Below the pieces are notes generated by a model. It did no database searches. It was not told where the DNA came from and was given only the letters and a program-made list of their open reading frames with translations. Of a DNA stretch of 44,051 nt, positions 24,748 to 25,913 are shown one piece after another (within the stretch, counting starts at the first letter, position 1; each line of letters starts with the position of its first letter). Made by a program: the position numbers and the translations under genes. Source of the DNA: Escherichia phage Rao1; the sequence record PQ221054; one strand, given 5' to 3'.

Positions 24748-25119
24748 ATGGCTGGTTTGTATGGTTGGGAGATGTACGATTCTGCGGGGCGGCTTGTAGC
24801 TGACAATAGCAGCATAATGAGCAGGAGGCTATTCACTTATAGCGTGCCACTGATAAGGGCTTTATCTGCAAACATACCATGGGAAGTCTCATTTAATGTT
24901 AACTTCTCAAATGGAACGCCTTATGCGCATTGCAATACAAGAACAGGGGTGGTGGTCCCTGCATCTACTAACTGGTATCCAGTATCACCTGATATAATAA
25001 TATCTGGAAATGCAGTTACACTCAGGTATACAAACAGGCATGTTTCCTATCCGGACGATCTTGGGTACATACTTGCAGTTGGTGGTGTTGATGTTCACTT
25101 AGGAGTTTATAATAAATGA
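24748..25119 (+). CDS. Hypothetical protein, J-downstream accessory (123 aa)
   Basis: ORF in a locally AT-rich segment immediately after the J-like gene. Confidence 0.4.
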   Translation: MAGLYGWEMYDSAGRLVADNSSIMSRRLFTYSVPLIRALSANIPWEVSFNVNFSNGTPYAHCNTRTGVVVPASTNWYPVSPDIIISGNAVTLRYTNRHVSYPDDLGYILAVGGVDVHLGVYNK

Positions 25120-25913
25120 GTGATTATGGTGTTGAACTAATAAATGACTATGGTTTAAAGGTTGCTGACGCAGAGGATGTAAATTACGTACTAAGAAGTT
25201 CTGGTACATTTAATGATTCAAATTTCTACTCATATGCAAACTCCACATCTGCAATTAGCCTCATGACCACAGGAATGAATTCGCCTCTTCTATTTCTAAA
25301 GATGAACGAAAGTAGGTCAAGGATAAGCCAGAAGCCTGGAGTTAACAAAATATCACCTGATTTTGTTAACCCAAATACCACAATAACAAAGACAAGCATA
25401 GACCTATTCAAGTGGTGGAACATACCGCTAGGAACTGTAGAGTATTACATATTTGACAAGTGGATCCCGCCAGAAAGAAGTGATTATGGAATGCAGATAT
25501 TTAATGAATCTGGTTCTATAATCTTTGATTCTGGCTGGTACTTCCTCAAACTTAGGGATGTGCTATGGCTTGATCCAAGTTATCCAAACCATTCAGATCA
25601 GGAAGGTGGTAGTAACTGGACTAACGTCGGGAATATTGTCAACTCCGCGAACGTATCAAACTCAGCATTATCAATGCCTGTTGGTAGGGGGTGGGTTGAA
25701 ACATCATTGCAGGGTGGGTACTACTATAATGAATGCTGTCACCTTGACTCATCCGGTAATCTATTTATATCCATAATACCTACAGGTATATACCTTGATG
25801 TTTCACCAACTGGCGGCTGGGTTGGCAATATGAGGACGCAAGTTATGGTTTGCGACACCTCGAGGCTGCCTCTTAATTACAATCCAGTTGAGATAAGAAA
25901 GGAAAACAAATAA
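25116..25913 (+). CDS. Hypothetical protein; candidate receptor-binding or tail-tip accessory protein (265 aa)
   Basis: Position downstream of the J-like gene and next to a convergent lipoprotein gene; AT-rich composition; Trp/Asn-rich sequence. Confidence 0.4.
   Translation: MSDYGVELINDYGLKVADAEDVNYVLRSSGTFNDSNFYSYANSTSAISLMTTGMNSPLLFLKMNESRSRISQKPGVNKISPDFVNPNTTITKTSIDLFKWWNIPLGTVEYYIFDKWIPPERSDYGMQIFNESGSIIFDSGWYFLKLRDVLWLDPSYPNHSDQEGGSNWTNVGNIVNSANVSNSALSMPVGRGWVETSLQGGYYYNECCHLDSSGNLFISIIPTGIYLDVSPTGGWVGNMRTQVMVCDTSRLPLNYNPVEIRKENK

Follow-up and report, generated by a model that had tools for sequence, protein, structure and literature searches.

A probable terminal-receptor recognition cassette with a candidate FepA-binding protein downstream of the J-like gene of Escherichia phage Rao1

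Genes downstream of J and their base composition

The window analyzed here is the whole 44,051 nucleotide stretch of sequence record PQ221054 (Escherichia phage Rao1), the DNA of a T1-like siphophage of the genus Rtpvirus (Braunvirinae, Drexlerviridae). The features in and around the region directly after its J-like gene are as follows.

21350-24706, plus strand: J-like central tail fibre or tail-tip gene, 1118 aa (phrog_31, E 0)
24716-24732, plus strand: GC-rich stem-loop GGCGGG-taaat-CCCGCC followed by a T-rich stretch, in the J/ORF123 spacer; terminator-like or attenuator-like
24748-25119, plus strand: ORF123, ATG start, 123 aa, predicted soluble all-beta protein
25116-25913, plus strand: ORF265, ATG start, 265 aa, candidate FepA-binding receptor-binding protein (RBP)
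25918-25936, between the convergent ORF265 and lipoprotein genes: stem-loop AAGGCCC-ttaat-GGGCCTT with A/T runs on both sides; bidirectional terminator-like
25925-26110, minus strand: 61-aa lipoprotein gene with lipobox LAGC, converging on ORF265 and ending 11 bases past its stop
26112-26216, minus strand: strongly hydrophobic ORF of 34 aa that immediately precedes the lipoprotein gene
24610-26203: cassette exchanged relative to a Guelphvirus relative (last 32 J codons, ORF123, ORF265, the lipoprotein gene and most of the 34-aa ORF)

The two ORFs and the adjoining lipoprotein gene are present exactly as the initial annotation described them. The J protein contains the Pfam domains PF24801, PF13550 and PF09327 (FNIII-A_GpJ, Phage-tail_3 and Phage_Tail_Tip), the last at residues 971-1097, and it stops about 20 residues beyond this domain without a C-terminal receptor-binding extension. 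The J stop and the ORF123 start are separated by a 41-nt spacer, and ORF123 and ORF265 overlap by 4 nt (ATGA). Phage T1 has annotated terminators in the corresponding places; the one at T1 positions 28568-28594 is equivalent to the stem-loop in the spacer, and that at 29602-29628 separates gp31 from cor just as the second stem-loop separates ORF265 from the lipoprotein gene.

The initial annotation also took the two ORFs to be visibly AT-rich and saw in this a hint of horizontal acquisition. The GC content of 24748-25913 is 40.8%. The mean of the window is 43.7%, with an sd of 2.3% for segments of equal size, so that this stretch falls at the 11th percentile. The AT-richness is real when set against J (46.3% GC, and a GC3 of 45.6% versus 36-38% in the two ORFs) but weak; ORF265 has 39.7% GC, ORF123 is average (43.0%), and a low GC of 39-40% persists downstream to about 27500, so composition marks out no island. 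The exchanged block as a whole has 40.7% GC, with a left flank of 45.4% and a right flank of 39.7%. Base composition, whose signal is weak, was therefore rejected as a sign of horizontal transfer, and exchange is demonstrated much better by the homology break described below.

Several nearby genes deserve mention. An HNH endonuclease gene (PF13392, phrog_99; 20820-21308) sits between the gpI-like tail assembly gene and J, and its GC content of 40.1% is as low as that of the ORF123-ORF265 stretch. Two Rha/anti-repressor-like genes lie on the minus strand, one (18857-19399) amid plus strand tail genes and the other (26297-26968; PF09669, phrog_8235) just beyond the cassette. The segment 27000-27450, between divergent transcription units, is very AT-rich (34-35% GC) with several promoter-like matches on both strands and is probably an early regulatory region. 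Farther on, an SSB-like ORF (29508-29927) has a long glutamine-rich tail, QQQQKQQQQQQQQRQPQPQQQ, ahead of its acidic C-terminus.

An exchanged block shared with the FepA-dependent phage IME253

In a blastn comparison, Guelphvirus vB_EcoS_CEB_EC3a is 89.6% identical to the window up to position 24609, shows nothing between there and 26204, and is 86.7% identical from 26204 onward. The left break lies 32 codons ahead of the J stop. In EC3a the corresponding interval encodes, on the opposite strand, a phrog_1265 protein of 320 aa and a lipoprotein of 80 aa. Thus, what has been exchanged is the tip of J together with both ORFs, the lipoprotein gene and the greater part of the 34-aa ORF. On the right, homology resumes within the first four codons of the 34-aa ORF, and the EC3a lipoprotein also begins MTNL.

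The DNA from 24700 to 26150 is 99.9% identical to that of vB_EcoS-IME253 (an Rtpvirus), ZL19, phiA2-1 and TR3, and among 50,697 phage records there is no DNA-level match beyond these four coliphages. A longer stretch, 22500-26301, gave a match of 99.97% identity that was assigned to IME253 by comparison, and ORF123, ORF265 and the lipoprotein are each 100% identical to their IME253 counterparts. The allele is rare; related DNA was found in only 8 of 5,426 complete E. coli genomes. IME253-resistant mutants were found to have lost fepA, neither delta-fepA nor delta-tonB strains were infected, adsorption dropped in the mutant, and complementation restored both infection and adsorption; a delta-fhuA mutant made in the same study was infected (Li et al., PMC6499177). 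Phage phiA2-1 is recorded as having been isolated on E. coli delta-fhuA. Because the near-identical IME253 has been shown to need FepA, the receptor of phages with this allele is known, and the proposal that the two ORFs are candidate receptor-binding determinants finds support in substance. No paper that we found names the protein that reads FepA in these phages. A 2026 survey of 255 phages assigned FhuA, BtuB, LptD and YncD families to this locus and never mentions FepA, and it contains neither a FepA-dependent phage nor a FepA class among the Drexlerviridae RBP families.

The locus has the positional and genetic properties by which a "bona fide RBP locus" was recognized in the BASEL work (PMC8594841). 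It lies just after J, as it does in 14 of 14 related loci; it is an exchanged allelic block that tracks the terminal receptor (the EC3a break and the FepA dependence of IME253); and it is accompanied by a Cor-like lipobox protein inside the swapped block, whose superinfection-exclusion activity is putative. That the encoded protein may be a virion component that binds the receptor is suggested by its analogy of fold to 9RPT chain C.

The lateral tail fibre gene (29958-31454, minus strand, 498 aa) encodes a C-terminal S74 intramolecular chaperone domain. Phage phiA2-1 has another gene at this position, which makes it a second variable host-range locus.

ORF265, ORF123 and their relatives

The arrangement of a small and a large gene after J is conserved well beyond the close relatives. 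In 14 of 14 IMG/VR viral contigs with an ORF265 homologue, an ORF of 110-125 aa ends no more than 25 nt from the homologue's start, and in 12 of these the tblastn match to J reaches the J C-terminus, ending 0-45 nt before the small ORF; in the remaining two that match extends no farther than J residue 747. Annotations of Klebsiella phage VAC2, Brenneria phage BREN6 and lambdoid prophages of E. coli and Serratia show this J-small-large order too, with overlapping stop and start codons in several. In T1 the order is J, terminator, gp32 (101 aa), gp31 (229 aa), terminator and then cor on the opposite strand, and JulesPiccard has the same order, its small protein having been annotated by its authors as a "putative tail tip protein". 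The gp32-gp31-cor genes of the FhuA type (T1, N15, phi80 and HK022; ST32, ST31 and ST30 in T1, bas03_0029-0031 in JulesPiccard) thus agree with those of the window in order, sizes and strands. Common to both are J, a terminator-like hairpin, a protein of ~100-123 aa, one of ~225-265 aa and a convergent Cor-type lipoprotein. They differ in that ORF265 belongs with phrog_4062 rather than phrog_425, ORF123 has no phrog_557 match, and the receptor (that of IME253) is FepA. Xanthomonas phages Xop411, Xp10 and OP1 also have this layout, with a J-like p22 (1573 aa) followed by p23 (96 aa) and p24 (231 aa), and p23/p24 is the most divergent pair between these otherwise ~97% identical phages (PMC2248197). 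A structural match in BFVD to p23 of Xanthomonas phage phiL7 was found as well, and together these observations suggest that the small-plus-large cassette extends beyond the Enterobacterales. Mass spectrometry of Xop411 virions detected 9 proteins, and the syntenic p23 and p24 were not among them, which counts against a virion role. Our literature search found no virion proteomics on ORF123, ORF265 or close homologues, and the VAC2 paper mentions neither protein.

The best family match of ORF265 is phrog_4062 (E 3e-53), with weaker matches to phrog_3370 and phrog_425. The last covers residues 101-150 only (E 6.9e-5) and so is not full-length membership of the family, of which T1 gp31 is the founding member (E 9e-68). 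The FhuA dependence that is associated with the T1 gp31/N15 gp23 family does not hold here, as IME253 needs FepA according to the literature and record metadata. ORF265 has no match in Pfam or NCBIfam, and a sequence search of the PDB with its family profile was discarded, as it returned only a chance match (E 1.4). Its close homologues number 20, with identities of 42-88%, and are encoded by phages as well as on the chromosomes of E. coli, Serratia, Phytobacter, Mixta and Pantoea. When 1.84 billion representatives were searched with a profile, 159 relatives emerged at E <= 1e-3, and for many of these the match is confined to the first ~150 positions.

The AlphaFold2 model of ORF265 is all-beta (pLDDT 75.7, pTM 0.78). 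Its confidence is low for residues 1-21 and 121-135, and its matches in BFVD are uncharacterised phage proteins of 220-310 aa. The structure prediction and fold comparison that the initial annotation had proposed as a check led to a solved RBP; ORF265 shares its fold with the LptD-type RBP of phage Oekolampad (PDB 9RPT, chain C) over 142 of its 265 residues at 11% identity, the target being a protein that binds another receptor. The poorly modelled residues 1-21 agree with the report that the Oekolampad RBP and T5 pb5 are poorly ordered in their tail-proximal parts. ORF265 showed no sequence or fold similarity to T5 pb5. In hhalign comparisons, a 155-sequence ORF265 superfamily profile matched T1 gp31 and JulesPiccard gp30 (Prob 95.9%, E 5.5e-9, 186 columns) and the LptD type (Prob 89.8%), and seven unrelated proteins of the window, used as negative controls, gave a Prob of at most 1.3%. 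The best reading of these analogies is that ORF265 is a candidate FepA-binding RBP.

An alternative, which we regard as quite unlikely, is that the cassette-specific C-terminal tip of J binds FepA and that ORF123 and ORF265 are assembly factors, chaperones or caps without receptor contact. The last 32 J codons do fall in the swapped block, J is regarded as the T1 RBP in PMC10373560, and J carries the specificity in TolC-, LamB- and NupG-type relatives. Against this, J ends ~20 residues past its Phage_Tail_Tip domain without the C-terminal extension described for the TolC and LamB types, 32 residues are few for a receptor-binding domain, and the fold of ORF265 is that of a protein seen by cryo-EM to bind its receptor directly.

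A recurring motif is seen at the N-termini of several of these proteins. ORF265 consists of two beta-rich halves, each of which opens with a hairpin-like YG-x-x-h-x-[DN]-x-x-G motif (residues 4-16 and 124-136); its N-terminus reads MSD-YGVELINDYGLKV and the second copy YGMQIFNESGSII. Compared with each other, the halves are only weakly similar by pairwise BLAST and by the close-family profile (Prob 11.8%), and it is the broad superfamily profile only that indicates an internal duplication, over the first ~33 residues. ORF123 begins M-AGL-YGWEMYDSAGRLV, T1 gp32 MA-YGISTWDANG, and T1 gp31 MS-YGAFIDVNG with an internal WGMAIWDASGKLV; the N-termini of LptD-type proteins are MPQGILIDLNDG. T1 gp31 and ORF265, which are remote homologues, have in common the YG hairpin motif at the N-terminus as well as an internal motif (WGMxIWDxSG / YGMQIFNESG). 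The regular expression for the N-terminal motif was composed after the sequences had been viewed, so its specificity in the window (2 of 94 ORFs) is illustrative only. The J protein here ends ...VLDRNGVVRVKLGYLG, and J proteins that precede the same cassette end ...DENNVVRVRMGRL. It may be that the YG motifs are hairpins that mediate docking at the tail tip.

ORF123 has no match in Pfam, PHROG or NCBIfam, and its AlphaFold2 model has a pLDDT of 77 and a pTM of 0.67. Its pairwise BLAST similarity to ORF265 is weak; by hhalign, a profile of the small proteins matches the C-terminal half of the ORF265 superfamily (Prob 89-92%, E about 1e-6, 84-86 columns), so that in sequence ORF123 resembles a stand-alone relative of the ORF265 C-terminal half. 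Homology of ORF123 to T1 gp32 was considered and is unsupported (Prob 3-5%), there being no significant similarity beyond the first ~15 residues. We propose that ORF123 is most likely a tail-tip partner or adaptor of the RBP. The roles could be reversed, with ORF123 or an obligate ORF123-ORF265 heteromer contacting the receptor and ORF265 alone being mainly an adaptor, but we think this rather unlikely.

Neither ORF123 nor ORF265 has a signal peptide or transmembrane segment (KD19 maximum 0.87 and 1.07), so the "membrane associated" label of the T1 relative has no sequence support. That label belongs to an older view, found in the T1 and N15 annotation and assumed for KanT1, in which the two proteins would be non-virion, membrane-associated accessories of Cor superinfection exclusion; PMC13164509 ties the T1 homologues to Cor, and phrog_425 is filed under "moron" in PHROGs. 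We consider such a role very improbable here. Besides lacking membrane signals, the pair lies on the J strand and is often translationally coupled to J, and the ORF265 fold matches a solved RBP. Moreover, a convergent lipoprotein gene lies nearby in only two of the 14 IMG/VR loci and is absent from 12, so the lipoprotein is not an obligate partner; a pair that belongs to the tail operon independently of the lipoprotein argues against a superinfection-exclusion role for ORF123 and ORF265.

The LptD-type RBPs (Rtp44, with lipoprotein Rtp45; Oekolampad RBP; phrog_1265) differ from the pair described here in being single larger proteins of 309-320 aa without a small partner. Their genes vary in strand, lying opposite J and co-oriented with the lipoprotein gene in EC3a and on the J strand in Klebsiella phage NJS1. 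Their receptor is LptDE, which is not a TonB-dependent transporter, and their identity to ORF265 is 11%; ORF265 has no match to phrog_1265, which the EC3a and NJS1 proteins match at E 1e-129 and 1e-91, respectively. In NJS1 (MH445453) the protein in question is encoded by an unannotated 318-aa ORF directly after J (27699-28655). As NJS1 is cited as FepA-dependent and carries this phrog_1265-type ORF, a single shared FepA RBP family was rejected, and FepA specificity does not map to one family. Either the receptor specificity of phrog_1265 proteins is not fixed or the FepA assignment of NJS1 needs checking.

The lipoprotein and a model of receptor recognition

The 61-aa lipoprotein begins MKKLIVITAMILAGC... 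and has a classical lipobox (LAGC) at residues 12-15. It matches phrog_1119, "Cor superinfection exclusion protein" (E 7e-5), and is 38% identical to the Cor protein of JulesPiccard (Bas03; pairwise E 6e-9), with ERT, EYSV and AGY-F motifs common to both; it aligns with JulesPiccard and T1 Cor over the mature part and is ~14 residues shorter at the C-terminus. By tblastn its matches in the whole phage collection are weak (E 0.07-0.3), and the L026 lipoprotein has no similarity to it. With its signal peptide and lipobox, small mature protein and similarity to Cor, it has the characteristics of the Cor and Llp lipoproteins and is a candidate Cor-like superinfection-exclusion factor. By analogy with Llp on FhuA and Rtp45 on LptDE, it probably acts from the periplasm to block the receptor of the phage, presumably FepA in this case; since the closest Cor proteins come from loci with the T1 (FhuA-type) layout, its target could also be a protein other than FepA. 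The 34-aa ORF (MTNLTTNVISAIFGVAATGFFVWLLMLASNFKGF; KD19 maximum 2.19) ends 1 nt ahead of the lipoprotein start codon. In Shigella phage Sd1 and in phage Phleasolo, relatives that are 82-88% identical adjoin Cor-like genes, and others with 47-53% identity are present in more than 100 Klebsiella phage records, most of the relatives being unannotated; it is a possible partner of the lipoprotein.

It seems likely to us that the locus serves a T1-like phage (Rtpvirus) as its cassette for recognition of the terminal receptor, and that the allele present here, a rare one, targets the enterobactin transporter FepA. ORF265 would be the RBP, a soluble all-beta protein borne at the distal tip of the J fibre, whose poorly ordered N-terminal hairpin motif probably docks on the tip and whose body would bind the extracellular face of FepA. 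ORF123, predicted to be co-translated with it, would most likely be a tail-tip partner or adaptor between the last ~32, cassette-specific residues of J and the RBP. The 61-aa lipoprotein, produced by the infected cell, would be an exclusion factor of the Cor/Llp type; presumably it binds FepA on the periplasmic side and so prevents superinfection as well as the loss of progeny to cell debris. The block 24610-26203 would move between phages as a unit. The present analysis establishes the anatomy of the genes, the boundaries of the cassette, its relations of fold and homology, and the conservation of synteny. The dependence on FepA and TonB was shown by others for IME253; the protein that touches FepA, its attachment to J and the target of the lipoprotein are what we infer here. 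The same logic is seen in T5 (pb5, or Oad, and Llp) and in the FepA-dependent T5-like phage H8, where a dedicated RBP is held non-covalently on the central fibre, and T5 Llp is likewise a periplasmic lipoprotein that blocks the very TonB-dependent transporter used by the RBP.

A J-downstream RBP/Cor cassette is already known, and the locus otherwise follows the known pattern. What is new is a candidate FepA RBP in the Drexlerviridae, the exact boundaries of the cassette, and evidence that the RBPs of FhuA, FepA and LptD type, far from being unrelated families, are remotely related. A broader idea, which we advance tentatively and with somewhat less than even confidence, is that at least these three types, which recent studies regard as unrelated families, form one old superfamily of J-downstream RBPs built on a duplicated beta-sandwich, in which the N-terminal "YG hairpin" would be a universal plug for the J tip and ORF123 a stand-alone copy of one domain. 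If true, this would explain the exchange of whole cassettes among T1-like phages, Dhillonvirus, lambdoid phages and even Xanthomonas siphophages, and it would provide a sequence rule for finding and grafting RBPs. The remote homology among the RBP families is in itself a modest conceptual gain. If the assignment of ORF265 is correct, it identifies the protein through which a T1-like phage can use FepA, and the cassette, with its clean boundaries, could readily serve to retarget small siphophages. The fhuA-deficient strains that are used against T1 contamination are infected by FepA-dependent T1-like phages, so recognizing this allele from sequence would be of practical use.
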